IMG/VR virus record: IMGVR_UViG_3300005294_000012
From: an uncultured virus (IMG/VR IMGVR_UViG_3300005294_000012)
Taxonomy: Duplodnaviria > Heunggongvirae > Uroviricota > Caudoviricetes
Direction: 5' to 3' (one strand)
DNA length: 20,000 bases
Shown: piece after piece, positions 1-16,527 of the stretch
Layout: each line of letters opens with the position of its first letter
How positions within the stretch are numbered: the stretch's first letter is position 1
Program-made: the position numbers and the translations under genes
The notes under the pieces: generated by a model
Database searches by the model: none
What the model was told of the DNA's origin: nothing
The model's input: the letters and a program-made list of their open reading frames with translations, nothing else

Positions 1-1
1 C

Positions 2-868
2 ATCCGTCATGGCGTACGCAGCACCCCGGATGGTCGAGCCCAGATGCACGTCACCATCACCCCTCGCGGCGATGACTTCGGATACCAAGGACGGATCGAG
101 CTGGACGCCTGGGAGCGACGTTGGGTGCACACCGTGAACAGCCTCAAAGCAGAAGATATCGACGCTCTGGCTGAGGACTGGGCCGACTCGATCGTGGCCA
201 AAAATCCTAATGAGCCCATCGAGATGGACCCGATAAGCACCACCGATGCGGTCTATTGGGCCGAGACGTTCACCAAGCGGTTCGGCGGGAAGTACATCAC
301 CGCCTACACAGCAGACCCTGAAGAGGGCGAGGTCGACTTCGGGACCATGGTGGCCTGGTTTGCCAATGCCATCGAAACTGGACGCAAAGCCGGTCATGTG
401 CAGATCGATCCGGAGGAGAAGCTGGTCGAGCTGCTACAGCGGAAGGTCGCCGGCCTCGAAGAGATGCTCGACCAGGAGCGGAAGAACAACAAGGCGCTGC
501 AGCAACACCTGGTCACCAAGAGCGAGGCTGTGCCCGATGAGGATGCGCTGCCCAAGGTGCCACTGGTGCCGGCAGATGACGTCGAGGCCAGCTTCATCGC
601 CGATCTGGACCGGCTGGTTGACGGGATGCGGGAGCGGATCCGGGTGCTGCAGCAATGGCGCACCAACCTGCTCAACGGCTCCGACCAATACGAGATCCAA
701 CGCAACGAGATCCAACGTCGCGAGGCCGCGCTCGATGACCAGATCGAGCAGGCGTATCTACGCGGCAAGGAGTTCGCAGTAACCCAAATCAAGAGCGGCC
801 TCGCCGACATCTGGTTCGGTGCAGACCCGCCACTACGAGAGGAGCAAGACCATGACGATGATCGATGA
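2..868 (+). CDS. Hypothetical phage protein, probably 5'-truncated, with C-terminal coiled coil
   Basis: Frame is open from position 2 through ATG 44 to TGA 868. Contains DAVYWAETF...MVAWFANAIETG and heptad-like segments. Confidence 0.75.
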   Translation: MRHGVRSTPDGRAQMHVTITPRGDDFGYQGRIELDAWERRWVHTVNSLKAEDIDALAEDWADSIVAKNPNEPIEMDPISTTDAVYWAETFTKRFGGKYITAYTADPEEGEVDFGTMVAWFANAIETGRKAGHVQIDPEEKLVELLQRKVAGLEEMLDQERKNNKALQQHLVTKSEAVPDEDALPKVPLVPADDVEASFIADLDRLVDGMRERIRVLQQWRTNLLNGSDQYEIQRNEIQRREAALDDQIEQAYLRGKEFAVTQIKSGLADIWFGADPPLREEQDHDDDR

Positions 869-1070
869 GCCGCGCTTGACCGACGCAGCGATCGCCCACC
901 GCAAGGACGTCGAGGCGATGCTGGCGCCCTTGCCACCGCACCCGGACGACCTGTTCATCCACATCTCGGGTGCTGACGTACCCGACAACGTTCCGGTGCA
1001 CGTCTGGCTGAAGTTCAAGGCCGAGGTGTACGCCTATATCGCGAACAAGCTCAAGGACCTCGGGACATGA
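852..1070 (+). CDS. Hypothetical protein
   Basis: ATG 852 preceded by GAGGAG; stop overlaps the next start (ATGA at 1067). Confidence 0.7.
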   Translation: MTMIDEPRLTDAAIAHRKDVEAMLAPLPPHPDDLFIHISGADVPDNVPVHVWLKFKAEVYAYIANKLKDLGT

Positions 1071-1564
1071 TGTTCTGGCGCAAGTGGTGGGGCAGCGCCT
1101 ACCGGAGGCGACTCCGCGAGCTCGAGCAACTCGCCGCGCAGAAGGCCGAAGGCGCGATGGGCCGGCACGTGCTGGTCAGTACGCGGAGCGGCAAGAAGGC
1201 GATGACCGAGGCTATGGTCGCCAAGGCGCAGGCCGAGGGCAAACAGGTCTTGATCTGGGATCCGAAAGGTGACCTCGAGGACTGGCCGGCGTACCTCCGT
1301 GAAGGGATCAGGATCGGCCAGTGGCCACGGTCGGGCAAGTCCCAGGTGATCGTCTCCGGTGGAGGCGGGATGGGCGGTTCGTACGACCAGCGCGCGCTAC
1401 AGATCATGACCGACGAGCTCGAGGGGCTGGCTGCGCAGCTGAACCTCTGGGCCGATGGCAACAACAAGACGACCACGCAGCGGGCCATCGCCACCGAGCA
1501 GCGCAACATCGCCCGCCAGCTGCGACAGATCGCCAAGGGAGGCAAGGCCGAGGATGGACGCTAG
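1067..1564 (+). CDS. Hypothetical protein with P-loop-like remnants
   Basis: ATGA-coupled start; contains HVLVSTRSGKK...VLIWDPKGD and PRSGKS. Confidence 0.7.
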   Translation: MMFWRKWWGSAYRRRLRELEQLAAQKAEGAMGRHVLVSTRSGKKAMTEAMVAKAQAEGKQVLIWDPKGDLEDWPAYLREGIRIGQWPRSGKSQVIVSGGGGMGGSYDQRALQIMTDELEGLAAQLNLWADGNNKTTTQRAIATEQRNIARQLRQIAKGGKAEDGR

Positions 1565-2183
1565 GTTCTCCCCGCAGCCCTGGACGCGGCCGGCCACGCC
1601 GAAGACCCAGCGCAAGCACGGCAACTTCCGAACCAGCTACACCCGGACCCTGGAGAAGCTGCAGTACGAGCTGGAGAAGATCGGCGCCACCGAGATTCTG
1701 TTCGAGTGTTCGTTCCACGCCAACCAGATCCGGCTCGACGGCTGGCCCAAGGCCAACCAGTCCCCGGAGTACAACGGGATCGCGGTCAGCTTCAACCATC
1801 CTGAAGTTGGCCGGGTCGAGTACGTCACCGACCGGTACTTCTTGTGGCAGGACAACCTGCACGCCATCGCCTTGACGCTGGAAGCGCTGCGCGGCGTCGA
1901 ACGCTGGGGTGTGGTCGCATCCGGCCAGCAATACACCGGGTTCAAGGCCATCGAATCGGGCAACGGATCGCGTCGGCCGGCAGCTGTGTGGATCGCCAAG
2001 CTGGTCGAACCCGACGACGCCGAGCGGCAGAAGGTCGTGGTCGACGGACTGCTGACCAAGTCCAGCCACATGACCAAGGTGGTGGTCCGACAGGCCAAGA
2101 TCCGGGCCCATCCAGACACCGGCGGCAGCCACGACATGTACCAGCTGCTCACCGAACGACTAGAGACATTGGGGTTGTCATGA
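1554..2183 (+). CDS. Phage DnaJ-like protein with C-terminal J-domain
   Basis: C-terminal AHPDTGGS (HPD motif); N-terminal RLDGWP...WQDNLHAIALTLEALRGVERWGV...QYTGFKAI is typical of this phage family. Confidence 0.85.
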   Translation: MDARFSPQPWTRPATPKTQRKHGNFRTSYTRTLEKLQYELEKIGATEILFECSFHANQIRLDGWPKANQSPEYNGIAVSFNHPEVGRVEYVTDRYFLWQDNLHAIALTLEALRGVERWGVVASGQQYTGFKAIESGNGSRRPAAVWIAKLVEPDDAERQKVVVDGLLTKSSHMTKVVVRQAKIRAHPDTGGSHDMYQLLTERLETLGLS

Positions 2184-2695
2184 GTGATTTGCAACCGTGG
2201 GGACGACCAGGCGGCGACAAGGGCCGGGTCAACTACGACACCATCAACGGCGGGCCCGAGATCGAATCGATCAACGGCGCCACCAAGAAGGGCGACAGCG
2301 GCTTCCACGATCCCTACCAGAAGCCGCCGGCAGGATTCGAGGACTGGCACCAGGTCGGGCAGTCCAACATGGACACGATCAACGAGGCCGCAGAACGGCA
2401 GAAGGCCCTGGAAGGCGCCGGGTTCAAGTACGACTCGAGCAACGGCACCTGGGTGGGACCGTCGGGCCGTACGACCACGCTGTTCGGCAACGATCCCGGC
2501 CCTGAGGGCGGCGTGGACTACCACTGGGATCGGCAGGGCGCAGGCAGCGAGCGAGGCCAGATCGAAGGCCAGTACGGCGACGATCCGCGCCGGCAGGGCG
2601 ACGACGACAAGGGCACCGAGATGCCTTCCGGGCTGAGCAGCTTTCTTGAGAAGTGGACCATCTGGGGGCGGATCCTGAAGCACTTCGGGCGGTGA
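2180..2695 (+). CDS. Hypothetical Gly/Asp-rich protein
   Basis: ATGA overlap at 2180 (MSDLQPWG...); high-GC3 codon use. Confidence 0.7.
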   Translation: MSDLQPWGRPGGDKGRVNYDTINGGPEIESINGATKKGDSGFHDPYQKPPAGFEDWHQVGQSNMDTINEAAERQKALEGAGFKYDSSNGTWVGPSGRTTTLFGNDPGPEGGVDYHWDRQGAGSERGQIEGQYGDDPRRQGDDDKGTEMPSGLSSFLEKWTIWGRILKHFGR

Positions 2696-2698
2696 GTC

Positions 2699-3196
2699 AT
2701 GGGTTGGGGCGACGATCAGGACGACCAGACCTGGGATGACGTCGCGTCCGACCGCAACCAGGAGCCGACCGACCGCTATCGCCGCGACCCGAACCAGCCC
2801 TACCGCTCCATCTGGGACGACCCCGATGATGATGAGGAGGAGAACCCGGCCGAAGGCTACAAGTACCGCAACAACGGTCTGGTCCAGAACAAGGGCAACA
2901 GCATCTGGGGCGCGCCGGCGCCCGGTACCCGGTGGGGCGACGGTCCGAACAACGTCGACCTGGACGATCATGGTGATCCGGTCGGACCGCGCGGCGGAGT
3001 CAGCTACGGCGGCTTCGGGTTCCACCGGGGGCAGACCGGGCACGGGGTCAAGACCAAGTACGACGACGTGCTGGCCAAGTACCAGACCATCCGCCATCCC
3101 GGCGGGGCGATGCGCAGGAAGATCAAGGCCGAACTGGAGCGCCGGATGCCGAAGGCCGAAGCGAGGAAGATCATGAAGGACCACAACTGGCTATGA
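2699..3196 (+). CDS. Hypothetical protein, acidic N-terminus and basic C-terminus
   Basis: Starts 3 nt after the previous stop; ATGA overlap downstream. Confidence 0.7.
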   Translation: MGWGDDQDDQTWDDVASDRNQEPTDRYRRDPNQPYRSIWDDPDDDEEENPAEGYKYRNNGLVQNKGNSIWGAPAPGTRWGDGPNNVDLDDHGDPVGPRGGVSYGGFGFHRGQTGHGVKTKYDDVLAKYQTIRHPGGAMRRKIKAELERRMPKAEARKIMKDHNWL

Positions 3197-3342
3197 CCTG
3201 GATGGAAATGCTGCACCAGCTGGCCGAGCGGAGCGCGACCGGATCGTTCGTCGCGTTGATGCTGCTCGGCCTGGTGCTCGGCGTTCCCGTGGTGACCTTC
3301 TTTGTGTGGCTGAACTCCCTTTTCGACGGGAGTAGGTCCTAA
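3193..3342 (+). CDS. Small membrane protein (49 aa), not in the ORF track
   Basis: ATGA overlap; MTWMEMLHQLAERSATGSFVALMLLGLVLGVPVVTFFVWLNSLFDGSRS has one hydrophobic helix and fills the gap before 3345. Confidence 0.7.
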   Translation: MTWMEMLHQLAERSATGSFVALMLLGLVLGVPVVTFFVWLNSLFDGSRS

Positions 3343-3344
3343 TT

Positions 3345-4745
3345 ATGGCCAGGCGTCCCGGCATGATCCGATACGGCAGTTTCGCCGAGGTGACCAACGG
3401 TGTCATCGGTTTCGTGCCGTGGGTCAAAGACAAGGTGCGGCGCTATATCTGGGGCATTGTCTGGCCCGGGATATTCGCAATTACGATGACGTGCCTGCTG
3501 GCTTATGGCCAGCACAAAATGGCCGAGATATTCGCCTCCGCCTCGATCGCCTTGGTCACGATCAAGCTGTTCATGGTCGCCTCGCAGCTGATATTGATGG
3601 GTTTCACGGCGGCGTTGCTGTGGGGAATGCACCACACCTCGCAGGCGGTGATGCCCACATTCAGTGTGGAGATTCCGCGTTTCGAGCCGCGTCCACCGCC
3701 GAACCTGGAGGCCGGCGAGACCTGGGAAGAGTGGCTCCGCAAGGGCGTACGCATCGGCCGTTGGCAGGGTGAGGTCGGGTCGCTCGAGCCCGGTGACATC
3801 TGCTGGATGCCGATCGTGGACGTCCACCCGTTCATCGCGGCCGAGTCCCGGATGGGCAAGTCGACGCTGCTCTGGGCGATCCTGTGGGAGCTGAAGCCGG
3901 CCATCGAGGCGGGCGTGGTCGAGATCATCTTGTTCGACCCGAAGAACGGCATGGAGATGGCGCCGGCAGTGGCGCTGGGTCTGGTCAAGTCCATGGAGCG
4001 GATGGGCCGTCCCGAGGGCATGGTGGACGAGGTCGATAACTTCTTCTACGGCCAAGACGTCGGGCACCCGGACCCGAACAATCCCGAGCGCTGGATCGGC
4101 AAGAAGTACGAGGAGACGTTCGTCCCGCCGCTGGAGCACCACGTGCAGCTGATGCGGGAACGCGCTTCTGAGGTGCGCGGTTCGATGCAGTGGATTCCGG
4201 CCAGCCGGAAGCATCCGCGCCGCATCGTGATCGTGGACGAGGGCGCCTCGCTGGCCCGCCCGTCGGCCAACCTGAACACCCGGCAGCGGATCATCTCCGC
4301 GATGCTGAACCTCTGCGACCAGGGCGCAGGCGCCGGCTACACGATCATCACCGCGACCCAGCATCCCGACGTCAAGAAGGTGCCGTGGCGCCACGGTCTG
4401 ATCGGTGCCGGCCTGTGTGGCCGGGTCAAGACCTGGGACGCGGTCGACATGGTGCTGGGCCGGGGCAGCTACGCGCGCGGCGCCTGGGGCGATCAGCTGA
4501 GCTCCAAGGTCAAGGGCGTGTTCTTCATGTCCGGTCACGGCGCCTGGCAGCTGCGGGTGCAGAACGCCAAGCCGAAGTTCACCCGGAAGCCTCCGGACCG
4601 TGGCGGCGGTAAGGAGATCGAGGAGTTCAACCCGAGTTCGGAGCCGACCAACGCGCAGCTGGCGCAGGTGGTGCCGCTCCGTAACCGCAACATCTGGCCG
4701 GTCCGGGAGAACGTCGGCGGGGACCGCGAAGTAGGGGCCGCATGA
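3345..4745 (+). CDS. Membrane-anchored FtsK/SpoIIIE (TraB-like) translocase-family protein
   Basis: N-terminal hydrophobic segments; Walker A AESRMGKST; IILFDPK; Walker B IVIVDE; GAGAGYTIITATQHP matches the FtsK GRaaGI...aTQRP block. Confidence 0.85.
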   Translation: MARRPGMIRYGSFAEVTNGVIGFVPWVKDKVRRYIWGIVWPGIFAITMTCLLAYGQHKMAEIFASASIALVTIKLFMVASQLILMGFTAALLWGMHHTSQAVMPTFSVEIPRFEPRPPPNLEAGETWEEWLRKGVRIGRWQGEVGSLEPGDICWMPIVDVHPFIAAESRMGKSTLLWAILWELKPAIEAGVVEIILFDPKNGMEMAPAVALGLVKSMERMGRPEGMVDEVDNFFYGQDVGHPDPNNPERWIGKKYEETFVPPLEHHVQLMRERASEVRGSMQWIPASRKHPRRIVIVDEGASLARPSANLNTRQRIISAMLNLCDQGAGAGYTIITATQHPDVKKVPWRHGLIGAGLCGRVKTWDAVDMVLGRGSYARGAWGDQLSSKVKGVFFMSGHGAWQLRVQNAKPKFTRKPPDRGGGKEIEEFNPSSEPTNAQLAQVVPLRNRNIWPVRENVGGDREVGAA

Positions 4746-4746
4746 G

Positions 4747-5283
4747 ATGGTTACCCGACTTCAGATCGTTGACGACCCGGGTGAGGACGACCGCGACGAG
4801 GAGGCTGCCGGCGTCCCGCAGCGGGAACGCGCGGCCAACATAATGGGCACCGAGCGCCGCCAGCTGATCATCGAGCTGGCCCGGGGTACCCGGCGGATCG
4901 TTGATCTTGCCTTCGAGCACGAACGCCCGCCGCAGGTCATCTCGAATTTCAAATACCGGAATAAGCAGGAGATCCTGCAGATGCGACGGGTGCTGGATTC
5001 CAAAACAGCTGATCTACATTTCGCAATTCAGCTGCACCGAATCGCCGATGCCGAGCGCCATCTGGCCTTTCTCGATGATCAGATCCGCAGAATGCAGGAG
5101 GGATTCCTGGACGGCGAGGAGGTCGACACCAAGGAATTGCGAGGTCTTATCGCCGACGCGTCGAAACTTCGTAAGGAGATCCGCGAGGAATTGAAGCCGA
5201 CCATGTCCCTGGGCGATATTCAGGTGACCCCGTCGAAGAAATACGGAGGCCAAAACTGGTTTGGTGAGGAGGGCGAGACATGA
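4747..5283 (+). CDS. Putative terminase small subunit-like protein
   Basis: Coupled by ATGA to the terminase large subunit homologue; HTH-like N-terminus followed by helical segments. The call rests mostly on position. Confidence 0.55.
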   Translation: MVTRLQIVDDPGEDDRDEEAAGVPQRERAANIMGTERRQLIIELARGTRRIVDLAFEHERPPQVISNFKYRNKQEILQMRRVLDSKTADLHFAIQLHRIADAERHLAFLDDQIRRMQEGFLDGEEVDTKELRGLIADASKLRKEIREELKPTMSLGDIQVTPSKKYGGQNWFGEEGET

Positions 5284-6575
5284 GTATGCCTGTTCTCCTC
5301 GACGACTACGTGGCGATCGGTTCCAACTGGGAGGCGTGCACAGCTACCGAGCAGGAGGTGATCGTCACCGGTCAATCGGGCAGCGGGAAGACCCGCGCGC
5401 TGCTGGAAAAGGTCCATCGGGCTTGCAAGGAGTTCACCAACATCAAGGTGTTGCTGCTGCGCAAGCGCAGTGCTGATCTGGCCGGCAGCGCTCTGGAGTT
5501 GTTCCGTGATCATGTCGCTGGGCCGGCGCTGCACACCGGTGAGGTGAGGTTCTTCGACGCTTCCCGCTCGGAGCCGGCGCGCTATGAGTACCGCAACAGC
5601 GGGTCGATGATCGTGCTGGGTGGGCTGTGGCCTCCGACGCAGGCGACCAAGGTCACCAACTCGGAGTGGGACATCGTCTGTGTGATCGCGGCGAACGAGC
5701 TGACCGAGCACGACTGGGAGCTACTGATCCCGCTATGCCGCAACGGGTCGCTGCCGATCAACCAGCTGATCGGAGAATGCCAGCCACAAGGCGATGATCA
5801 CTGGATCCTGCAGCGCGCCAAGCGCGGCCAGCTGCGACTCATCGAGGGCGTCATCGAGGACAACCCGCGCTGGTTCCGCAACGGCGAGATAACCAGGGAG
5901 GGACGGGCCTTCATCGCCAAGCTGGACGCTCTCACCGGGGTCACCAAGCTGCGCAACCGGTACGGCTACTGGGTGGCCGCACAAGGCCAGTGCTGGCCCA
6001 GCTACAACGACAAGGTCCACCTGATCGAGCCGTTCCCGTTCCCGTTCCACTGGCCCACCTGGTGGAGCATCGACTTCGGGAAGGTGCACCCGTTCGCGTT
6101 CGGGCTGTTCACCATGGACCCCAACGGCCGAGCGTTCCTAGTGAAGCAGATCCACATGTCCGGCCGGGAGACCGAGGAGCACTGCCGCGACATCCTGCGG
6201 ATCACCCAGCCGTACGCCTCGCCGACCGACATCATCACCGATCACGCGGCCAACGACGTGGCGATCTGTGAGCGGATGTTCGGCCGCAAGGTGGTCTTGG
6301 CCAACAAGTCCGTACTCGAGGGCATCGACTACGTGGAGAAGCGGTGGGCGCAGCGCAAGCTGTTCATCTTCGATGACTCCCTGGTCGAGATCGATGAGAC
6401 GTTGCGGTCGCGTGGCCGGCCGATCGACCTGCAGTCGGAGATCCCGGGGTACGTGTGGCAGTCGGGCAAGCGTTCCAAGGAGGGCCCGGTGAAGGCCTGG
6501 GACGATAGTTGTGACATGACGCGTTACTTCATCGCCGAGCAGGACGCGCCCGAGCAGTGGGAGGTGAGCTGGTGA
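5280..6575 (+). CDS. Terminase large subunit homologue (PBSX-like) with degenerate Walker B
   Basis: Walker A GQSGSGKT; HW and DNP motifs; nuclease-domain carboxylates in SIDFG..HPF, ITDH and DDSCDMTRY. Confidence 0.9.
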   Translation: MSMPVLLDDYVAIGSNWEACTATEQEVIVTGQSGSGKTRALLEKVHRACKEFTNIKVLLLRKRSADLAGSALELFRDHVAGPALHTGEVRFFDASRSEPARYEYRNSGSMIVLGGLWPPTQATKVTNSEWDIVCVIAANELTEHDWELLIPLCRNGSLPINQLIGECQPQGDDHWILQRAKRGQLRLIEGVIEDNPRWFRNGEITREGRAFIAKLDALTGVTKLRNRYGYWVAAQGQCWPSYNDKVHLIEPFPFPFHWPTWWSIDFGKVHPFAFGLFTMDPNGRAFLVKQIHMSGRETEEHCRDILRITQPYASPTDIITDHAANDVAICERMFGRKVVLANKSVLEGIDYVEKRWAQRKLFIFDDSLVEIDETLRSRGRPIDLQSEIPGYVWQSGKRSKEGPVKAWDDSCDMTRYFIAEQDAPEQWEVSW

Positions 6576-6763
6576 GCGCTCTAGGCGAGTACGCCGTCAA
6601 GACGGTCGCGGCAGGCATGGCCTTGATCAAGATGCTGGGGTTTCTCAAGACCGAGGACGAGAGCCTGGTACTGACCCGCGCCGAGGTGGAGGCGATCATC
6701 ATGACGATCCGCGAACAGGCGACAGAACTCAAACTTCGCAATATCAGGGGGCGGCAGCGGTGA
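6572..6763 (+). CDS. Hypothetical protein (63 aa)
   Basis: GTGA overlap with the terminase stop, preceded by GGAGG. Confidence 0.65.
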   Translation: MSALGEYAVKTVAAGMALIKMLGFLKTEDESLVLTRAEVEAIIMTIREQATELKLRNIRGRQR

Positions 6764-6873
6764 TCCCGATGATGATGGTCGACTGGAACCGGCCGATGTG
6801 GGTGATCTTCATGATCTGCATGACCGTGATCATCTGTGTGACGATCAGCAATCTGCACCGGTGGTTCAAGTGA
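6760..6873 (+). CDS. Membrane micropeptide (37 aa)
   Basis: GTGA overlaps at both ends; MIPMMMVDWNRPMWVIFMICMTVIICVTISNLHRWFK. Confidence 0.6.
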   Translation: MIPMMMVDWNRPMWVIFMICMTVIICVTISNLHRWFK

Positions 6874-6950
6874 AAGACGGCTGGAGCCTGGTCCGCTTCT
6901 GCATGGTCTTGGTGATCATTGCAGTGGTTGCAAACGAGTTGCTGAAGTGA
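6870..6950 (+). CDS. Membrane micropeptide (26 aa)
   Basis: GTGA overlaps at both ends; MKDGWSLVRFCMVLVIIAVVANELLK. Confidence 0.55.
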   Translation: MKDGWSLVRFCMVLVIIAVVANELLK

Positions 6951-7582
6951 TTAGCGTTGCAGCTGTCGGCCGGCCGTTCCGGTACGCCGGGATGTTCTCC
7001 GCCGCCGGCGCCAGCTGGATCTCTCGGAAGCTGGATCCCAAGGTGGACCGGGAGATCATGACTGAGATCGGTGAGCGGAAGGTGCTGGAGATTCGCAAGC
7101 ACTGGTTCGCCTCGAACTGGGCGATGATCCGGATCTTGTTCAGTGCGATCGTGCTGGGCTGGTTGACGGCGCTGACGCCCGAGCACTGGTATGAGTGGGT
7201 CGGTTTCTTCTGGGTGGTCTGGGTGATCATCTTCATCGCCACCCGCGCGGTGTGGCGGGTGCTGGAGCACTACCGGGACCGGTTCGTGATCACCAACCAG
7301 CGGATCCTGCGCTGTGATGGGGTAGTCGGCACCGATACCGCGATGATTCCGTTGAAGCGGATCACTGACATCACCGTCAAGCAGTCGGTGTGGGGGAAGC
7401 TGTTCAACTACGGCCACATGATCTTCGAGTCCGCCGGCCAGGTGCAGGGGCTGAACGAGATCCGCTACGTGGCCAACCCGCGCAAGCGCAAGCGCATCCT
7501 GCTGATCGCCATGAACGGCGACAATCCCGAGGCCCTGGTCCTCGACCCGTCCGAGGGGAACCCCAATGACGATGGCACCTGA
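6947..7582 (+). CDS. Bacterial PH-domain (bPH_2) membrane protein
   Basis: IRKHW, two TM helices, then RFVITNQRIL...GV...IPLKRITDITVKQSVWGKLFNYGHMIFESAG. Confidence 0.85.
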   Translation: MISVAAVGRPFRYAGMFSAAGASWISRKLDPKVDREIMTEIGERKVLEIRKHWFASNWAMIRILFSAIVLGWLTALTPEHWYEWVGFFWVVWVIIFIATRAVWRVLEHYRDRFVITNQRILRCDGVVGTDTAMIPLKRITDITVKQSVWGKLFNYGHMIFESAGQVQGLNEIRYVANPRKRKRILLIAMNGDNPEALVLDPSEGNPNDDGT

Positions 7583-7739
7583 GCAGATCCTGTTCTCGAT
7601 CGGACTGCTGCTCTGGCTGTTCGCCTGGATCGCCATCTTGCTCGAACTGCTGTACCACCTGGTGCGCTTCGAGATCTACCTGTGCAGGAAGCTCCGCCGG
7701 ATGATCAAAGCAAGACGGTCGGATCCCATCCCTCAGTGA
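7566..7739 (+). CDS. Small membrane protein (57 aa), not in the ORF track
   Basis: GAGGGG upstream; MTMAPEQILFSIGLLLWLFAWIAILLELLYHLVRFEIYLCRKLRRMIKARRSDPIPQ; 3' end overlaps the convergent PadR gene. Confidence 0.6.
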   Translation: MTMAPEQILFSIGLLLWLFAWIAILLELLYHLVRFEIYLCRKLRRMIKARRSDPIPQ

Positions 7740-7962
7740 TCTGGTAGACCCGCCGGCGGGGGCGTCCTGGCTCGAGATCGGGCTCGTGCTCCCAGGTGCT
7801 GGAGAGGCAGTGCTCGCGCTCGAGCCTGGCCAGAATCGGATAGACCACCCCGCTCGCTACGCCGGCGCGTACGGCGACCTCGTAGCCATAGATGCTTTCC
7901 TCCTCGTCGCGGAGTTGGATGATCGCTCGGACCACGGCTTTGACGGCCATCGTTTTCTTCAT
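7705..7962 (-). CDS. PadR-family winged-helix transcriptional regulator
   Basis: YGYEV...SGVVYPILARLE...STWE...GRPRRRVYQIT; likely ATG at 7962. Confidence 0.9.
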   Translation of the reverse strand: MKKTMAVKAVVRAIIQLRDEEESIYGYEVAVRAGVASGVVYPILARLEREHCLSSTWEHEPDLEPGRPRRRVYQITEGWDPTVLL

Positions 7963-7969
7963 AATCCGT

Positions 7970-7998
7970 ATGCTACATGTGTTGACTACGACCCGCAA
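7970..7998 (-). promoter_or_regulatory. Sigma70-type promoter for the PadR gene (probably leaderless)
   Basis: Minus strand reads TTGCGG-17nt-TAGCAT-7nt-ATG, with no SD sequence. Confidence 0.6.
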
Positions 7999-8010
7999 CT
8001 AGTTCATAAT
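7982..8010 (+). promoter_or_regulatory. Sigma70-type promoter for the rightward small-gene operon (probably leaderless)
   Basis: TTGACT-17nt-CATAAT-6nt-ATG(8017). Confidence 0.8.
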
Positions 8011-8016
8011 TGAGGT

Positions 8017-8223
8017 ATGGCCAAACAAGACTTGCAGAACGGCATCGAGGACATCGTCAACATCCTCAGCGACCTCCCCAACGATCAGGTCAAGATCATC
8101 GACCGCCTCGACACGATCACCGATCTGCTGCAGCGCATCGCAGTCGCCATGGAAACCCGCGAACTCCGCGAGGCTGGCCTCCCCAAGCACGCCGATCTCC
8201 TCCAGAAAGGGCGAGTGTCATGA
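8017..8223 (+). CDS. Hypothetical helical protein
   Basis: First gene after the promoter; ATGA-coupled to the next gene. Confidence 0.75.
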   Translation: MAKQDLQNGIEDIVNILSDLPNDQVKIIDRLDTITDLLQRIAVAMETRELREAGLPKHADLLQKGRVS

Positions 8224-8483
8224 CCTTCCGCCGCACCCCGTTCATCCCGTACGACACCTCCAGCTGGACCGCTAGCCCGGAGTGCATGGACGTCAGCTAC
8301 GCCGTCGCCCAAGAGCGCGCCCCCGAGGCTGGCGTCCCTCTCCGCCGCCCGACCGAGACCGACGAGGAGTACGCCGAGCGCAACGAGTCCGAGATCGAGA
8401 TGACTCCCTGGACCGAGAACGAGCCCGAGACCTACGCCGAGACCCTGGGCCTCGACGACTACGACGTGGTGAACGACCGATGA
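8220..8483 (+). CDS. Hypothetical acidic protein
   Basis: ATGA overlaps at both ends; Glu/Asp-rich C-terminus. Confidence 0.75.
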   Translation: MTFRRTPFIPYDTSSWTASPECMDVSYAVAQERAPEAGVPLRRPTETDEEYAERNESEIEMTPWTENEPETYAETLGLDDYDVVNDR

Positions 8484-8680
8484 AGCACTGGACCGAGGGC
8501 CGGATGAAGCTCCAGATGGTTGCGCTGGGGATGGCTGCGGTCCTTCTCGTCGTCACCATGGTTCCCGACGGCAAGCCCAGCATTATCGCCATCGTCTGCG
8601 CAGTCTCAGCACTCGTCAGCTGGGTCTCGAAACGCCTCTCCCTGTACGCCGAACTCCAAGACCAGGAGGACCAGTCATGA
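8480..8680 (+). CDS. Small two-TM membrane protein
   Basis: ATGA overlaps; two hydrophobic helices. Confidence 0.7.
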   Translation: MKHWTEGRMKLQMVALGMAAVLLVVTMVPDGKPSIIAIVCAVSALVSWVSKRLSLYAELQDQEDQS

Positions 8681-8880
8681 CCCCCGAACAGCTCTCCAAG
8701 ATCATCGCCGCATTCCCCAACGACTCCAAGCGCCATCACCACGCGCTGATCCGCCAGCTGGCGCAGCAGTGCTTGCAGTCAGGCTTCGAGGCCACCATGC
8801 TCAAGGCTCATGTTGATGGCCTCCGCGCCGAGTTGGCCAAGAAGCCTGTCCCGTTCAAGGCCGATTGCGACGCAGCATGA
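8677..8880 (+). CDS. Hypothetical protein
   Basis: AGGAGG SD and ATGA overlaps. Confidence 0.75.
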   Translation: MTPEQLSKIIAAFPNDSKRHHHALIRQLAQQCLQSGFEATMLKAHVDGLRAELAKKPVPFKADCDAA

Positions 8881-9077
8881 AGCCCTGCGAAGTCTGCGGC
8901 AGCGATCACTGGGCCATATCGGTCCAGTGTTTCGTCTGTGAGCACAAGGTCAAGCCGCCGACCCAAGCTCAGATCATGATGGCCCGTCTGCACATCCAGC
9001 TGCACGCCGCCGGCGACGAGGAGATCACCGAGGGGATGTGGGCCATCGCCGGCTTACCGCTCGAGGTGCACACATGA
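8877..9077 (+). CDS. Small zinc-ribbon protein
   Basis: CEVC...CFVC; ATGA overlaps. Confidence 0.7.
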   Translation: MKPCEVCGSDHWAISVQCFVCEHKVKPPTQAQIMMARLHIQLHAAGDEEITEGMWAIAGLPLEVHT

Positions 9078-9256
9078 GCTTTGAGGAGCAGATCAAGGAC
9101 CTGCGCGAAGGCTGCCCGTGCTGGACCAACGGCGCCCGCCTCGGCCACGAGGGCCACTGCTGTTTCCTGATCGATGACCGCGAAGGCAAGCCGATCAGCC
9201 AGTGCTGGCGTGAAACCGACGACATTTGCCACGTGCCGCCGAAGGTGAAGCGTTGA
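9074..9256 (+). CDS. Small Cys/His-rich protein
   Basis: GAGGT SD; CPC...HEGHCC...CH. Confidence 0.7.
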   Translation: MSFEEQIKDLREGCPCWTNGARLGHEGHCCFLIDDREGKPISQCWRETDDICHVPPKVKR

Positions 9257-9468
9257 AGCTCAGCAAGTCCTGCTCTCGGGGTTGGCACGGCAGATGCAGG
9301 GGCCTGATCTGGCCTCTCGGGCCCAAAGGCACCACGAACGTCCTGTGTCGCTGCACCTGCCACGAAGCGCATCCCACTACCGTGACCGAATGGCCACCCG
9401 AGAACGCTCCCCGCGAACCGTCAAAACTATCGACACCGAGCTGGCCCAAGCGGCCTACCGGCGGATGA
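9253..9468 (+). CDS. Small putative Zn-binding protein
   Basis: TTGA overlap start; C..GWH..C...CRCTCH. Confidence 0.6.
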   Translation: MKLSKSCSRGWHGRCRGLIWPLGPKGTTNVLCRCTCHEAHPTTVTEWPPENAPREPSKLSTPSWPKRPTGG

Positions 9469-9557
9469 TGCACGGCGACAACGAGATCTCGCGGCGCTCC
9501 AACATGAGCGCGATCGATGTTCTGTTGGATGAGCGTCTGCGCGTCGCCGGCCGATAG
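9390..9557 (+). CDS. Hypothetical protein
   Basis: Ends IDVLLDERL; overlaps the previous ORF by about 80 nt, so the start is uncertain. Confidence 0.55.
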   Translation: MATRERSPRTVKTIDTELAQAAYRRMMHGDNEISRRSNMSAIDVLLDERLRVAGR

Positions 9558-9619
9558 CTGAGAAATTCCCGATAGCTTTCGATCGGAATATTCCTCTCGG
9601 CTCTGTGAAAGGGCACCAC

Positions 9620-10732
9620 ATGAAGCGATCGGGGCGCTTACGGCGCGTCTTCGCAGGCTTCGCAGTGATGGGGATTCTCGGCGGCGGCATCACTGCGCTG
9701 ACCGAGACGCCAGCGTTCGCGGCATGGCCAGCGACCATCAAGATCTGTAACTCGACCTCCTCGGAAGACACCAACGGTGGCGGCACCGATGGCAAGAACA
9801 TCGACGTCGATCGGTTGCCAGGCAGCTCGTACGGCACCTACTCGAACGAGTTGCTGCCTGGCGACTGCACCGGGAACGTCAACGACCCGGCGAACGTCCG
9901 CATCGACGCGACCGACGACGGCGCGAACTACTCAGCCGCCGGCTCATTCCAGGTTGGAATCGACCAGGACGGCATCGACGACGGTCAAAGCACCTACGAC
10001 CCGGCATGCGCCAACACCGCCTCGATCAGCAATGAGAACGCCTACCCGGTGCCGCAGACCGCTGCGGAGCATGTCGTGGCCGGCTACGGCCTTGAGGTTC
10101 GCCTCCAGACTCGCACCTCGTGTGGTGCGGATGACCCGAACTTCGGGCGGATCTGCTCCGACTCTGGCAGCTACGACGACTTCGACGCTGAGGGCATCGG
10201 CACGAACACCTACAACAACAACCTGCCTCCAGGTGAGTGCACGGCGTTCTTCCCGGTCGCAGCTGCCGGAACCGAAGGCACCGAGAACGAGTACGAGGCC
10301 AACCGGATGCTCGCCGACCTGTCGGACGACAACTCGGCTGGTGAGACGGTGGCGTACAAGTGGAAGGACAACTACCAGCAGACCACTCTCACGCACTGCG
10401 AGCAGACCTTCTCCACGGAGCTGGGCGGCACATCTGGCACCGGCTGGGATGTACCAGTCCAGCACGACCCCACCACCGGCGCCCTGGTCGCCGGTAAGAC
10501 GGTGACGATTAAGACCTTCCTCGGCAATCAGGATCCTGACGAGGGAATCTGCGGTCTTGAGGCTCCGGTCGTGAGCTCGTTCGTGGACGAGAGCGCCTAC
10601 GGCAAGGCGACTGACACCGACTACGCGGAGGGCCAGGGCACTGACCCGGGAGACAGCCTCCCCACAGAGCAGGTGACGTGGCCATACCAGACCACGACCA
10701 CCGAGCCTCTCGGCGAACCGGATGGGAGCTAG
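9620..10732 (+). CDS. Secreted acidic protein with two tandem four-Cys domains
   Basis: GAAAGGG SD; signal peptide ending TPAFAA; internal repeat. Confidence 0.85.
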   Translation: MKRSGRLRRVFAGFAVMGILGGGITALTETPAFAAWPATIKICNSTSSEDTNGGGTDGKNIDVDRLPGSSYGTYSNELLPGDCTGNVNDPANVRIDATDDGANYSAAGSFQVGIDQDGIDDGQSTYDPACANTASISNENAYPVPQTAAEHVVAGYGLEVRLQTRTSCGADDPNFGRICSDSGSYDDFDAEGIGTNTYNNNLPPGECTAFFPVAAAGTEGTENEYEANRMLADLSDDNSAGETVAYKWKDNYQQTTLTHCEQTFSTELGGTSGTGWDVPVQHDPTTGALVAGKTVTIKTFLGNQDPDEGICGLEAPVVSSFVDESAYGKATDTDYAEGQGTDPGDSLPTEQVTWPYQTTTTEPLGEPDGS

Positions 10733-10735
10733 ATC

Positions 10736-11176
10736 ATGAATATCAAGAAGAGACTCCTCGCCCTGCTAGTGGCGATCCCGTTCTTGGCGATCATGATCAC
10801 CGGGATGACGGCGCCGGCAGCCTCGGCAGGCGACAACGCCTACACCGGCACGAAGTTCCTCTCGGTCGACTACGACATGATCAAGATGTGCCACAACTGG
10901 GCGACGAACACCTGTTCGAGCACCTCGGGCAACAAGAAGTTCATCTGGAAGAACAGCAGCTACTACCGTTGCACCAGCACCAACCTCAATGCGTGCGGGT
11001 CCAACGCCTTCAACTGGAACGACAGCGACGGGTTCTACCTGCCTTCCGGCTGGAAGGCTGCGACCAACGTCATGGGCATTCCGACAGGCTGGGTGCATTA
11101 CGGCCTGTGGGATGGCTACTGGAACAAGGTTGGCGACTGCGGGTGCTGGAAGTACATCAAGAGGTACCCGAAGTAG
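10736..11176 (+). CDS. Secreted Cys/Trp-rich protein
   Basis: Sec signal peptide ending PAASA; six Cys in the mature part; DSDGFYLPSG...GYWNKV. Confidence 0.85.
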   Translation: MNIKKRLLALLVAIPFLAIMITGMTAPAASAGDNAYTGTKFLSVDYDMIKMCHNWATNTCSSTSGNKKFIWKNSSYYRCTSTNLNACGSNAFNWNDSDGFYLPSGWKAATNVMGIPTGWVHYGLWDGYWNKVGDCGCWKYIKRYPK

Positions 11177-11707
11177 GTGAATAAGCGCCTCTGGCTCGTA
11201 GGGGTGGCGGCGGTCCTGTTGTCCGCCGTCACCGCCGTGCTCATCTACGTGAACGCATCCAAAGACGACGGTAAGTGGCGGCCCGATCAGGAGAACTGGC
11301 CGCCCGCGCAAATTTGGGGACAAGGTGAGGAAGGCAAGGATCTGCCTGCCGACTTCACCCCACCGAGGCCGCAGATCGAGGTGCTGTGGTCCGCCTATCG
11401 ACCCGGGTTCAAGAAAGAGATCGACCGGGCGGGAGACGCTGGGGACTGTGCGGCTCTCAACAGATACTTCGATGACGCCGCCGCTACCGACACTCAGGAC
11501 CGGCTAGCTCTAACCTACATCGACCGGTGGGGAATGCACTTGGAATGCCGCGAGTTCCTCGGGGACAGCGGTGACCCGTCCAAGCCCGTAGCTCCCGACG
11601 CCTACATGATCTGCGAACCGGAGGGCAAGAAGGCCCAGACCCCAGGTGGGACCAAAGTGGTCTGCAAGAAAGGCGCTGACGGCTCGCTCCGCTGGCAGAA
11701 GAGGTGA
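11177..11707 (+). CDS. Membrane-anchored extracellular protein
   Basis: N-terminal TM helix; C-terminal C.PEG...GG...VC...DGSLRW mini-domain. Confidence 0.8.
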   Translation: MNKRLWLVGVAAVLLSAVTAVLIYVNASKDDGKWRPDQENWPPAQIWGQGEEGKDLPADFTPPRPQIEVLWSAYRPGFKKEIDRAGDAGDCAALNRYFDDAAATDTQDRLALTYIDRWGMHLECREFLGDSGDPSKPVAPDAYMICEPEGKKAQTPGGTKVVCKKGADGSLRWQKR

Positions 11708-11717
11708 CGCAGATCAC

Positions 11718-11747
11718 TTGCCGCCTCAGCGTTACCACAGGTAACGT
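11718..11747 (+). promoter_or_regulatory. Candidate promoter overlapped by an operator-like inverted repeat
   Basis: TTGCCG-18nt-TAACGT; CGTTACC-aca-GGTAACG at 11730-11746. Confidence 0.45.
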
Positions 11748-11874
11748 GCTGTAACGGAAATGCGCACGGGGGAGCCGGCACTGTCGGCTGCATGGGGCGC
11801 CGCCTGTTGGGGGCGAGCTCGGGGGATGATTGGTGGGTCCGGCGATGTCAGGCCATGGCGCCGGACCCTTCCAA

Positions 11875-11947
11875 TCCTCGGTAGCTCAGCCGGCAGAGCG
11901 TCGGATTGTTAATCCGCAGGTCGCTGGTTCGAATCCAGCCCGGGGAG
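11875..11947 (+). tRNA. tRNA-Asn (GTT)
   Basis: Acceptor stem TCCTCGG/CCGGGGA; D arm GCTC/GAGC; anticodon loop TT-GTT-AA; T arm GCTGG-TTCGAAT-CCAGC; discriminator G; CCA not fully encoded (CCG). Confidence 0.95.
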
Positions 11948-11963
11948 CCGTAACCTGATCAGC

Positions 11964-12245
11964 ATGGCAACCTTCAACCCGCTCAAGTCGGCAGACAACG
12001 AGCCGGCGGAAGGCACCGAGTACGGCGGTCGGCCCGGATTCATCCAGCCCAAGTCTCTCGGCCACAACATCGACGCTCCTGATCATGTCGCCGAGAAGGT
12101 GGCGATCATCCACTTCGAGGCCTTCCATTCGGCCCAGGTGATGGAAGACCTGCCCCCGACTGACGAGCACTACGATGCCGTCCTGGAGCTCCAGACGTTG
12201 AGAGCCGCGCGACTCGGCGAGTACACGATCGAAGATGCGCTCTAG
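11964..12245 (+). CDS. Hypothetical protein
   Basis: 93-aa ORF just downstream of the tRNA with phage-like codon usage. Confidence 0.7.
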   Translation: MATFNPLKSADNEPAEGTEYGGRPGFIQPKSLGHNIDAPDHVAEKVAIIHFEAFHSAQVMEDLPPTDEHYDAVLELQTLRAARLGEYTIEDAL

Positions 12246-12292
12246 CTAGGTAAGCTCACCCGCGAGGCCATGATGGGGGAAAGGTCTCACGC

Positions 12293-14644: not shown

Positions 14645-14653
14645 GGGGAGAGC

Positions 14654-14737
14654 ATGAACGGCAACGCTGTAATCGGGACCGTCATCGGAGTTCTGGTGAT
14701 CATCATCTTGGTCTTAGTGGTCTTGCGCCTGACATGA
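14654..14737 (+). CDS. Membrane micropeptide (27 aa)
   Basis: GGGGGAG SD; MNGNAVIGTVIGVLVIIILVLVVLRLT. Confidence 0.65.
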   Translation: MNGNAVIGTVIGVLVIIILVLVVLRLT

Positions 14738-14814
14738 GCGACGCGGCGGAGGCCGCAGTAGCGATCCTGATCGTCGTGATCATCGTGCTGATCTACACGC
14801 ATTGGGGTTCTTGA
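14734..14814 (+). CDS. Membrane micropeptide (26 aa)
   Basis: ATGA overlap; MSDAAEAAVAILIVVIIVLIYTHWGS. Confidence 0.55.
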   Translation: MSDAAEAAVAILIVVIIVLIYTHWGS

Positions 14815-14969
14815 CGAGGTTCGGTCGAGACCCTCATACTGGCCCGTAATTAGTAATTGCTCGACCAACGTAAGCGGCCTCGGAGTGAGGGACATCAGGC
14901 TAGCCTTCCCCTGCGAGCGAGTGCCGACCATCCTCCGAGGCCGAGACGACCCTACCGGAAAGACTGACC

Positions 14970-15428: not shown

Positions 15429-15442
15429 TTACGATTCGAGCC

Positions 15443-16321: not shown

Positions 16322-16527
16322 ACGATGAGCGACGCCTACGGGTCACCTTCGAGTACAAAAAGCCTCCCGAGTGGGGTGAGGGCTGGAACAAGACCAGTCG
16401 CGAGGGAGGCGAGGACATCATCGACCAGTACAACAAGCTGCGAGAGTGGGAGCGCACCGGTGAGGAGCCGATCCGCAATGTCGTGCTCGAGGAGCTGAGT
16501 GTGACCGCCCAAGTGATCAGCGAGTGA
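16318..16527 (+). CDS. Hypothetical protein
   Basis: ATGA and GTGA overlaps. Confidence 0.75.
   Translation: MNDERRLRVTFEYKKPPEWGEGWNKTSREGGEDIIDQYNKLREWERTGEEPIRNVVLEELSVTAQVISE

Follow-up and report, generated by a model that had tools for sequence, protein, structure and literature searches.

Large terminases (TerLs) are regarded as motors that cannot work without burning ATP, and the catalytic glutamate serves as a defining feature. Every change at the equivalent residue of lambda, E179, is lethal according to the accessible part of PMC6379665, Table 1 of which gives the corresponding motif of Sf6 gp2 as ICWVE-E119. The accessible part of PMC5727402 states that the substitution E143A abolishes the ATPase activity of the D6E enzyme and that its trans-arginine finger, R158, sits in the alpha3-beta4 loop. 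In the accessible portions of the literature, no description was found of a TerL without the catalytic glutamate, of a module uniting an FtsK-like protein with a terminase, or of a natural, conserved and selected TerL lineage keeping ATP binding and nuclease but not hydrolysis.

The gene considered here lies in a 20-kb window, that is, the whole stretch of 20,000 nucleotides analysed, which is part of a 71,103-bp contig of an uncultured virus. Its stop-free 431-aa product, P0001 (Table 1), is clearly, by sequence and predicted structure, a full-length two-domain descendant of a phage large terminase. Full-length tblastn matches include the annotated TerLs of two cultured phages, Thermobifida phage P1312 (39%, E 2e-84) and Dagobah (35%). 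An AF2 model of high confidence (pLDDT 93) contains both parts of the TerL fold, an ASCE ATPase and an RNase H-like nuclease, and resembles the D6E TerL (Foldseek E 1.4e-27; Z 28 (VIA) over 379 residues), Sf6 (structural Z 21), the P74-26 ATPase domain (Z 19, rmsd 3.1-3.4) and the P22 nuclease domain (Z 19.2, rmsd 2.1). Comparison with Pfam Terminase_3 (PF04466), a check proposed in an earlier note on this DNA, gave no match for any of the six members of the P0001 clade, even at E<=10, whereas all three canonical relatives tested passed (30-38 bits against a cut-off of 23.2). The TerL families of PHROG match P0001 weakly (phrog_5653, E 2e-10).

Table 1. Features of the TerL-like gene and its surroundings, in window positions.
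Feature	Position	Strand	Remarks
FtsK/TraB-like membrane ATPase (466 aa)	3345..4745	+	Walker A ...RMGKST, Walker B IVIVDE, N-terminal hydrophobic segments
TerS-like gene (178 aa)	4747..5283	+	stop overlaps TerL-like start (ATGA)
TerL-like protein P0001 (431 aa)	5280..6575	+	ATPase-like domain ~1-225, RNase H-like nuclease domain ~226-431
Walker A P-loop GQSGSGKT (G31-T38)	5370..5393	+	retained
W-P-P-T-Q segment in place of Asp120	5628..5642	+	clade-specific; from alignment
Ile136-Ala137, end of Walker B strand	5685..5690	+	codons ATC GCG; Ala137 at catalytic-Glu position
Glu140, downstream Glu	5697..5699	+	GAG; retained in 6/6 clade members
Leu152 replacing conserved Arg	5733..5735	+	helix-to-strand loop preceding C-motif strand; from alignment
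C-Q-P replacing coupling (C) motif C-N-P	5778..5786	+	GAA TGC CAG CCA at 5775-5786 = E-C-Q-P
Nuclease Asp265	6072..6074	+	invariant, 98/98; aligns with D6E D266
Nuclease Asp321	6240..6242	+	97/98 homologues (91/92 non-clade)
Nuclease Asp412	6513..6515	+	97/98 homologues (91/92 non-clade)
68-aa ORF overlapping TerL-like stop	6557..6763	+	6576-6758 without counterpart in colinear L003; dispensable
Run of small predicted membrane proteins	6760..7739	+	hydropathy segments
37-aa peptide	6760-6873	+	predicted membrane protein
bPH_2 membrane protein	6947-7582	+	Pfam bPH_2, E 1.3e-11
57-aa peptide	7566-7739	+	predicted membrane protein
PadR-family regulator	7705..7998	-	convergent with operon; Pfam PadR, E 8.2e-9

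Motif conservation was counted in 98 aligned homologues (six clade members and 92 others) and in a second set of 149 non-clade representatives of 50%-identity clusters. The earlier note had described Walker A and three nuclease aspartates as kept, and both descriptions hold in the set of 98. In Walker A, G31, G36, K37 and T38 are present in all six clade members, and the first three occur in 92, 91 and 92 of the 92 non-clade homologues. The same note had regarded the Ile-Ala pair ending the Walker B strand as deviant, which applies to the alanine, found to be part of a clade-wide change, and not to the isoleucine. Where relatives read V-(Q/N/D)-E-A-x-E, P0001 reads V-I-A-A-N-E. Position 136 is occupied in the 92 others by N (32), Q (30), F (11), P (6), I (4) and D (1), an acid being rare; with hydrophobic residues at this site in canonical members, Ile136 was rejected as part of the defect and the anomaly is Ala137. 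Glu137 is missing from all six clade members (Ala in five, Ser in one); the 92 others have Glu (71) or Gln (21) there, each Gln being accompanied by Glu139, and a glutamate at 137 or 139 is present in 148/149 representatives. Residue 137 was equated with the catalytic position through Sf6 E119, the ...ICWVEE... segment of Sf6 gp2 aligning with ...IVYVQE... of the P0001 family, together with spacing and without direct alignment of the D6E segment. The mapping of D6E residues has this basis because a PDB profile search with residues 105-233, made to place E143 and R158, did not retrieve D6E.

The departures from the canonical site extend beyond Glu137. The reading of the coupling motif as ECQP, made in the earlier note, agrees with the codons at 5775-5786; residue 168 is Q, R, E, Q, E and E across the six clade members, never Asn, against Asn in 91/92 homologues and 148/149 representatives. 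That close homologues share the substitutions was thereby confirmed for both Glu137 and Asn168. Asp120 is present in 0/6 clade members versus 90/92 homologues and 139/149 representatives, and the segment that replaces it is modelled with lower AF2 confidence (block means 84 and 74). Residue 152 is Leu throughout the clade and Arg in 86/92 homologues and 137/149 representatives; nearby, Arg154 is kept in P0001 and is His in three of the six. All six cultured phage relatives possess E137, N168, D120, R152 and R154. The family to which P0001 belongs was already deviant, without the Walker B Asp and without the P-loop Arg. Over the protein as a whole, the clade has lost 9 of 48 conserved sites in the ATPase half and 5 of 43 in the nuclease half. 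These patterns suggest that P0001 lost ATP hydrolysis and that it would still bind ATP.

A different reading of the same residues is that P0001 is the phage's one true packaging terminase, active through an unorthodox site and encoded away from the portal gene, with the catalytic carboxylate supplied by Glu140 or by Asp66 or Glu166, both of which are carboxylates specific to the clade. This appears unlikely. In its favour, along with Walker A, the residues R61, K124 and E140 are conserved in 6/6 clade members, and in an NQAEE-type sub-group (21/92) the glutamate has shifted from 137 to 139 while a member of that type, L015, still adjoins a portal; this family therefore allows its catalytic residues to move. 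A search for a cultured phage of the NQAEE type found none. Against it, every clade member has lost the same four active-site positions, each of them separately conserved elsewhere, the glutamate at 137 or 139 is kept almost everywhere else, and the variation at residue 168 (Q/R/E) resembles released constraint. Rescue by Glu140 is itself unlikely, as judged from the alignments, because this residue is Q or G in four of six cultured phage TerLs, in which it is evidently dispensable, and is absent from 14 of the 149 representatives (present in 135).

In the nuclease half, the aspartate triad (Table 1) suggests that P0001 retains nuclease activity. Glu235 and Glu325 are among the conserved nuclease-half sites lost in the clade, so that the description of the nuclease as intact refers solely to the triad.

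The six members of the clade, all from metagenomes, are 63-100% identical, share the loss of E137, N168, D120 and R152, and form a monophyletic group with support of 1.0. No other internal branch of the family tree is as long as the stem of this group (0.76; median 0.084), which also argues against an unorthodox but working terminase. The clade forms a single 50%-identity cluster, its next relative scoring 395 bits versus 870 bits. Viral contigs searched with P0001 and with the clade alignment yielded only distant canonical relatives (24-32% identity), genome contigs searched with the clade alignment gave no match, and metagenome contigs gave two close relatives, L003 and L004, both within the span of the window. 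The sister lineage, P0007, found only relatives at 38-43% identity among viral contigs. A second degenerate lineage is represented by P0122.

The loss of catalytic motifs and the long branch could in principle mark a duplicate that is degenerating into a pseudogene. This is extremely improbable: the window, L003 and five further clade members all have an intact reading frame, dN/dS between P0001 and L003 is 0.133 overall (0.147 in the ATPase half and 0.094 in the nuclease half, from this one sequence pair), and mean column identity over the clade is 79%. Identity within the clade is higher in the ATPase half (72.6%) than in the nuclease half (66.4%). Pseudogene decay was rejected on the dN/dS value and the conservation of the ATPase half. 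Given a dN/dS of about 0.13 and the stronger conservation of the ATPase half, both despite the longest branch, the motif loss is, as far as sequences can tell, a constrained functional shift and not decay. The strong purifying selection on the ATPase half also counts in favour of an unorthodox terminase. The proposal of the earlier note that P0001 is a repurposed pseudo-ATPase gains from these results in part: the loss is clade-wide and extends to Asp120 and Arg152, and purifying selection with an accelerated stem fits repurposing. None of the results singles out one of the roles named in that note, a stand-alone DNA-end nuclease, a dominant-negative inhibitor of packaging or an Avs decoy.

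Two features had escaped the earlier note: the TerS-like gene immediately upstream, and the membership of the TerL-like gene in a conserved module that also encodes an intact FtsK/TraB-like membrane ATPase. The TerS-like protein has no match in Pfam or PHROG; its eight homologues are 71-94% identical, and AF2 modelled it with low confidence (pLDDT 64). An hhalign comparison of its family with the genes upstream of seven canonical TerLs gave a probability of 67% and E 5.1e-5 over 49 columns only, an overlap that covers an HTH-like segment (34-82). A TerS-like gene placed directly upstream, with overlapping stop and start, counts in favour of the unorthodox terminase. The presence of this partner with translational coupling, together with the conserved C-terminal tail, is as in a working terminase and speaks against repurposing.

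The FtsK-like protein carries its hydrophobic segments within residues 34-95 and matches PHROG phrog_1358 (FtsK/SpoIIIE-like) with E 8.6e-13; no Pfam family, FtsK_SpoIIIE included, matches it at E<=10, and a search of genome contigs with it gave none. In PADLOC it matches mad8 (E 1.8e-9), which was read as general ATPase similarity. The FtsK-like, TerS-like and TerL-like genes stand side by side on the same strand with hardly any spacing, and the order recurs in L003 and L004. The module is also found with clade members of 65-78% identity: a 3814-bp contig would carry P0259, P0106 and P0002, and further pairs are P0261 with P0005 (5597-bp contig) and P0257 with P0108 (3988-bp contig), each association being deduced from equal-sized contigs of the same source. 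The predicted genes form a conserved module: FtsK/TraB-like ATPase, TerS-like and TerL-like, with small membrane proteins and a PadR regulator after them.

Such an arrangement could reflect a division of labour in which the FtsK/TraB-like ATPase is the motor and the TerS-like and TerL-like proteins provide recognition and cutting, all in one membrane DNA machine; it might pass the phage genome between the cells of a mycelial host without virions, much as in conjugation, or else capture incoming DNA and cut it. This reading, which is rather doubtful, draws on the tight spacing of the three genes and on the recurrence of the triad in relatives down to about 65% identity. It is also consistent with the conservation of GKS and DE in all 14 homologues of the FtsK-like protein, with the small membrane proteins flanking the module, and with the best tblastn matches of the FtsK-like protein, its nearest named relatives being FtsK/SpoIIIE proteins of small actinomycete plasmids (e.g. 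Micromonospora NC_006910, 27%, E 5e-15). As a precedent, HCMV splits ATPase and nuclease between the terminase subunits pUL56 and pUL89, as given in the accessible part of PMC6897398. Neighbouring genes alone are, however, weak evidence; actinophages commonly carry FtsK-like genes in their non-structural arms, at a distance from the terminase (P1312 ORF63 is one), and the adjacency may therefore be incidental. No clt-like array was present among 23 direct-repeat families in 1-12300, where short or degenerate repeats could be missed, and scans for repeats, promoters and terminators showed no pac, cos or clt array, counts being close to shuffled expectation. The recognisable genes of the window are phage genes, with no replication or integration genes of plasmids or AICEs.

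Downstream, in line with the earlier note, come genes for small predicted membrane proteins, none of which matches a portal or capsid. A promoter-like site at 7982-8010, a consensus match only (10/12), faces the next rightward genes. No match to portal, protease or capsid was found in the 20-kb window or in L003, whereas a portal directly follows TerL in four of five control metagenome loci and lies no more than three genes from it in P1312 and Dagobah. Upstream of the module, DnaJ-like and FtsK-like genes are typical of non-structural arms, and the module looks like part of the non-structural, regulator-proximal region of a temperate actinophage. This non-structural neighbourhood tells against P0001 being the packaging terminase. 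In support of P0001 being that terminase, the 20 kb show no second TerL, and the window does include late genes: minor tail proteins (12293-16321), a candidate lysin and a homologue of a structural-module gene (19453-19917). It also carries a tRNA, and its 316-aa and 223-aa proteins matched only hypothetical proteins in tblastn against phages.

Prophage-expressed conflict genes often sit beside regulators, and a PadR regulator adjoins the gene. P0001 might, as the earlier note proposed, be a dominant-negative subunit that poisons rival terminase rings, or a decoy that soaks up terminase-sensing Avs proteins. The TerL fold is fully kept, including similarity to an Avs3-bound terminase (8dgc_E, Z 13.5), and the better conservation of the ATPase half is what would be expected if surfaces mattered over catalysis. 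Neither role, though, needs an intact nuclease triad or a dedicated TerS-like partner, both of which are conserved, and neither the TerL-like nor the TerS-like protein matches any PADLOC defence family; such a function is considered decidedly improbable.

The explanation favoured here, held with about even confidence, is that P0001 is a repurposed, ATP-binding but hydrolysis-dead nuclease derived from a terminase, or 'pseudo-terminase'. Its task has probably changed, since the ATP-burning residues are lost, the ATP loop and the DNA-cutting site are kept, and its neighbours are a membrane pump rather than head genes. The protein keeps the TerL fold, the P-loop and the RNase H-like centre and lacks the residues for hydrolysis and coupling, namely the catalytic Glu past the Walker B strand, the Asn of the C motif, Asp120 and one loop Arg. 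This combination makes it most likely that ATP serves as a switch or as a cofactor for assembly and that the protein cuts double-stranded DNA without driving it into capsids. The TerS-like protein would act as its DNA-recognition partner and the FtsK-like protein as a further partner, and a separate packaging terminase is presumably encoded elsewhere in the genome. One possible role is the cutting of rival or own DNA at the membrane.

If true, a hydrolysis-dead lineage would be a terminase 'pseudo-enzyme', and would indicate that packaging enzymes are open to recruitment into a different DNA transaction. It would also be a naturally occurring separation-of-function variant, with which the gating of the nuclease by ATP binding could be studied. 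The conserved FtsK-like neighbour hints that, in actinophages, DNA machines of the packaging and the segregation type may be linked, and a three-protein machine, if real, would be of a new kind, with a terminase-derived recognition and cutting unit re-coupled to a membrane DNA pump. For annotation, the locus is a warning that a TerL match alone is no proof of a packaging module.

Among known systems, the TraB/FtsK translocases of actinomycete conjugative plasmids and AICEs resemble the FtsK-like neighbour in being membrane-anchored with small membrane proteins nearby. The similarity of the neighbour to the plasmid proteins is just 27-28% identity over about half its length, and, unlike in those elements, the locus has no clt-like array and its surroundings are minor tail proteins, a DnaJ-like gene and a tRNA. 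Shigella phage Sf6 gp2 (PDB 4IDH) aligns with P0001 by profile over the ATPase core (E 2e-6), ICWVEEAEAV of Sf6 corresponding to IVYVQEAxEL of the P0001 family and E118-E119 (numbered as in the accessible part of PMC6379665) to I136-A137. The closest solved structure is that of the TerL of Geobacillus phage D6E (PDB 5OE8/5OEA), with which P0001 aligns by sequence over the nuclease half (E 1e-33) and shares the strand of the C-N-P motif and a W-x-AEG linker. In the D6E enzyme, ATP hydrolysis depends on E143, on R44 of the P-loop and on R158, the trans finger (PMC5727402, in its accessible part); P0001, in contrast, has Ala at the Glu position, no P-loop Arg (a family-wide trait) and Leu at one of the two loop Args. 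The TerLs of P1312 (ORF3) and of the Streptomyces phages Dagobah, Xkcd426, Mischief19, phiSAJS1 and Asis have the same length and architecture as P0001, are 32-40% identical to it over the full length, and have in common with it Walker A, R61/K62, K124, the HW and DNP motifs and the nuclease Asp triad. All six of these cultured phages have Glu137, Asn168, Asp120, Arg152 and Arg154, whereas P0001 is without the first four; and while the TerL of these phages lies at the left end of the genome beside portal and capsid genes, P0001 is encoded beside an FtsK-like gene and membrane peptides.

P0001, the 431-residue TerL-like protein, is a genuine full-length large-terminase homologue. It matched 245 of 50,697 phage records searched by tblastn. 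Annotated terminases of cultured actinophages came out on top, that of Thermobifida phage P1312 at 39% identity (coverage 100%, E 2e-84) and that of Streptomyces phage Dagobah at 35%. Its AlphaFold2 model (98 homologues as input, mean pLDDT 93) resembles the full-length terminases of Geobacillus phage D6E (Foldseek E 1.4e-27; VIA Z 28, 379 residues) and Shigella phage Sf6 (gp2, Z 21). Taken separately, the nuclease half superposes on that of P22 with a Z of 19.2 at an rmsd of 2.1 A, and the ATPase half on the P74-26 domain with a Z of about 19 at 3.1-3.4 A. G+C is 63% over the window and 0.88 at the third codon positions of the ORF, as in other plus-strand genes.

The codons that the earlier note had given for the altered motifs are correct (Ile136-Ala137 at 5685-5690, Glu140 at 5697-5699, E-C-Q-P at 5775-5786), and the substitution proved common to all close homologues, so that the loss of ATPase motifs is clade-wide and broader than that note had it. 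A search of 5.8 billion proteins yielded 100 relatives of P0001. Five of them, P0002-P0006, form a clade with P0001 at 63-78% identity, and each comes from an assembly of a public sequencing run; beyond this clade identity is 42% or less. Motifs were counted in a 98-sequence alignment of the six clade members and 92 others. Position 137 is Glu in 71/92 non-clade sequences and Gln in 21/92, all 21 of which carry Glu two residues on (the 'NQAEE' type); the clade has Ala (five) or Ser (one) at 137 and N, N, N, D, T and N at 139. At position 168, the C-motif, 91/92 non-clade sequences have Asn and the clade has Q, R, E, Q, E and E. Asp120 (90/92) is replaced in the clade by a W-P-P-(T/P)-Q segment, Arg152 (86/92) by Leu in all six members, and position 154 (Arg in 87/92) reads R, R, H, R, H and H. 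Walker A is intact in all six, and the three nuclease aspartates are kept in 98/98, 97/98 and 97/98 of the aligned sequences. When 1.84 billion cluster representatives were searched with a profile, the clade came back as one 50%-identity cluster at 870 bits, the next match scoring 395 bits; among the 149 best other representatives, Glu stands at 137 or 139 in 148, Asn168 in 148, Asp120 in 139 and Arg152 in 137. The Pfam Terminase_3 model matches the three canonical relatives tested and, even with the threshold relaxed to E<=10, no member of the clade. Ile136, which had also been counted in the defect, is not part of it: an acidic residue is rare at this position in the family (N32, Q30, F11, P6, I4 and D1 in the 92 non-clade sequences). 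The P-loop arginine is absent from the whole TerL family of P0001. Sequence change extends beyond the ATPase half: of family positions at least 85% conserved, 9/48 in the ATPase half and 5/43 in the nuclease half, Glu235 and Glu325 included, are replaced in all six members.

Which residue is catalytic was assessed by comparison with characterized terminases. In a profile alignment the family segment IVYVQEAxEL aligns with ICWVEEAEAV of Sf6 gp2, where Walker B and the catalytic Glu are ICWVE-E119 (Table 1, excerpt of PMC6379665); by this alignment, position 137 is the catalytic Glu site. The abstract of the same paper states that every change of the equivalent lambda Glu179 is lethal. In D6E, the closest solved structure, ATP hydrolysis is lost in each of the mutants E143A, R44A and R158A according to an excerpt of PMC5727402, which assigns the trans-arginine finger R158 to the alpha3-beta4 loop. 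The P0001 model has this loop between helix 143-152 and strand 162-167, where positions 152 and 154 are found; the P0001-D6E correspondence rests on spacing and topology and not on residue-by-residue alignment of Walker B. The claim of a dead ATPase had been made subject to the downstream Glu of A-N-E not taking the catalytic place, and comparison across relatives counts against Glu140 as catalyst. Among six relatives from cultured, plaque-forming phages, four (Xkcd426, Mischief19, phiSAJS1 and Asis) have Gln or Gly in its place and retain Asp-Glu at 136-137. It is also missing from 14 of the 149 representatives, whereas nearly all of the 149 have Glu at 137 or 139. Glu140 thus appears a weak rescuer of catalysis.

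The main rival explanation, that P0001 is the sole terminase of the phage with its catalytic residue relocated, is unlikely, though it gains from one such relocation in the family: in the NQAEE sub-family (21/92; N-Q-A-E-E at 136-140, Walker A often being G-P-Y-E-T-G-K-T) the Glu seems to have shifted two residues on, from 137 to 139. Copies of this type lie in metagenome loci L015 (9905-11287) and L010 (902-2380). The type is probably a working terminase, since a portal gene (phrog_113, E 1.9e-48) directly follows the L015 copy. Another TerL homologue, P0122, also has a degenerate ATPase (Ser for the Walker A Lys, L-G-A-T-D at 136-140, Asn168 to Leu, both loop arginines gone, three nuclease aspartates kept). 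It branches apart from the clade, and its loss looks independent because the canonical P0007 and P0008 lie in between. Several homologues of 700-1260 aa have large insertions inside ATPase motifs, in P0161 just behind the point where the Walker B strand begins; these insertions look like inteins.

In the tree the six members form a monophyletic clade (support 1.0), whose sisters are P0007 and P0008, with canonical motifs (support 0.994). Its stem, at 0.76 substitutions per site, is the longest internal branch; the median branch measures 0.084 and the 95th percentile is 0.46. The reading frame is open in every member, and dN/dS between P0001 and a 93% identical DNA relative (L003; one pair only) is 0.133 overall; taken by halves it is 0.147 (ATPase) and 0.094 (nuclease). 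Mean pairwise identity inside the clade is higher in the ATPase half (72.6%) than in the nuclease half (66.4%). That P0001 is a decaying gene is contradicted by this dN/dS and by the better conserved ATPase half. A stem that evolved rapidly and a clade that was constrained afterwards make the pattern of a functional change.

Features of the window around the TerL-like ORF.
Feature	Coordinates	Strand	Remarks
165-aa protein	1067-1564		Residues 34-74 weakly match conjugative coupling proteins around Walker A (TIGR03743 SXT_TraD, E 6.9e-4); deviant P-loop-like S-T-R-S-G-K-K, then W-D-P-K-G-D; may be another degenerate NTPase remnant of the same operon
DnaJ-like gene	1455-2183		phrog_9210, E 4e-28; H-P-D tripeptide near C-terminus (translation)
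49-aa membrane peptide			Between DnaJ-like and FtsK/TraB-like genes
FtsK/TraB-like ATPase	3345-4745		N-terminal hydrophobic segments
178-aa gene	4747-5283		Stop overlaps start of TerL-like ORF
TerL-like ORF (P0001)	5280-6575	+	431 residues, stop-free translation
68-aa ORF	mostly within 6576-6758		Follows TerL-like ORF; stretch without counterpart in otherwise colinear L003
Small membrane peptides, bPH_2 membrane protein			Downstream of TerL-like ORF
PadR regulator			Downstream; convergent
Small ORFs			Downstream, after PadR regulator
Three consecutive proteins (375, 146, 176 aa)	9605-11707		Each with N-terminal hydrophobic segment, no library match; middle one Cys-rich; possibly secreted or surface
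tRNA-Asn (GTT)	11875-11949		About 88% over 74 bases to tRNA-Asn of Microbacterium phage Pumpernickel
Minor-tail and GDPD tail-fibre-like genes	12293-16321		783 aa, Gly-rich C-terminal third, phrog_754 minor tail E 7.7e-14; 152-aa tail protein, phrog_5556 E 4.9e-6; GDPD protein, Pfam GDPD E 1e-23, phrog_16641 tail fibre; no tape-measure or tail-tube gene ahead
223-aa protein	16524-17195		Residues 27-138 match small-terminase phrog_10899, E 1.1e-10; tblastn matches are hypothetical proteins in 27 Gordonia phage genomes, close to their right end; either a possible second TerS-like gene or a loose phrog_10899 annotation
Probable lysis cassette (lead only)	17403-19400		316 aa (nearest atlas clusters carry Peptidase_M15_4, score 0.85, lead only); 157 aa, N-terminal hydrophobic segments, holin-like; 190 aa, no match
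Homologue of Streptomyces phage Hiyaa structural-module gene			Last downstream

Nearly all genes of the window lie on the plus strand. Homologues of the DnaJ-like protein are annotated as DnaJ-like chaperonins and lie in non-structural arms of Microbacterium and Gordonia phages. The GKS and DE motifs of the FtsK/TraB-like ATPase are invariant in 14 homologues. The 178-aa protein has no match in protein-family libraries; its family shares an HTH-like 49-column stretch with genes preceding canonical TerLs (hhalign probability 67%, E 5.1e-5), by which it is assigned, with moderate confidence, as TerS-like. Such a partner would be expected of a working terminase, a second point for the sole-terminase explanation. 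The roles offered in the earlier note, a dominant-negative protein or an Avs decoy, are improbable and do not account for the retention of both the nuclease triad and a TerS-like partner of its own. That note's observation of membrane peptides, not portal or capsid, after the ORF holds, and no match to a portal, protease or capsid gene was found anywhere within the 20-kb window, which is part of a 71,103-bp contig. In four of five control loci, drawn from metagenomes and carrying TerLs of this family (L005, L011, L012 and L015; not L010), the portal is directly 3' of TerL, and in P1312 and Dagobah it lies within three genes.

The FtsK-like/TerS-like/TerL-like module is conserved, its distant members being recognized by matching lengths and source and not from mapped DNA. 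L003 (13.4 kb) is colinear with 2774-16325 of the window and a second metagenome locus, L004, with 3699-5794. By lengths and source, a 3814-bp contig would carry P0259 (FtsK-like, 68%), P0106 (TerS-like, 75%) and P0002 (TerL-like, 78%), and two further pairs of module proteins would share contigs, P0261 with P0005 one of 5597 bp and P0257 with P0108 one of 3988 bp. A bolder variant, in which the FtsK-like ATPase would be the motor for a TerS-like/TerL-like cutter, is quite unlikely. The reading we prefer, at about an even chance, is that P0001 is a terminase-derived protein predicted to keep nucleotide binding and DNA cutting and to have dropped ATP hydrolysis. Its own TerS-like protein would be its working partner, and its gene would have left the head-assembly module for one with an intact membrane DNA translocase.

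In literature searches at the level of listings, no natural TerL lineage lacking the catalytic Glu and no FtsK-terminase module was found described. P0001 fails three tested features that define TerL (catalytic Glu, C-motif Asn and portal adjacency) as well as the curated Pfam model, and for this reason it is not classed as a terminase; the large terminases are the proteins from which it descends and like which it would work.
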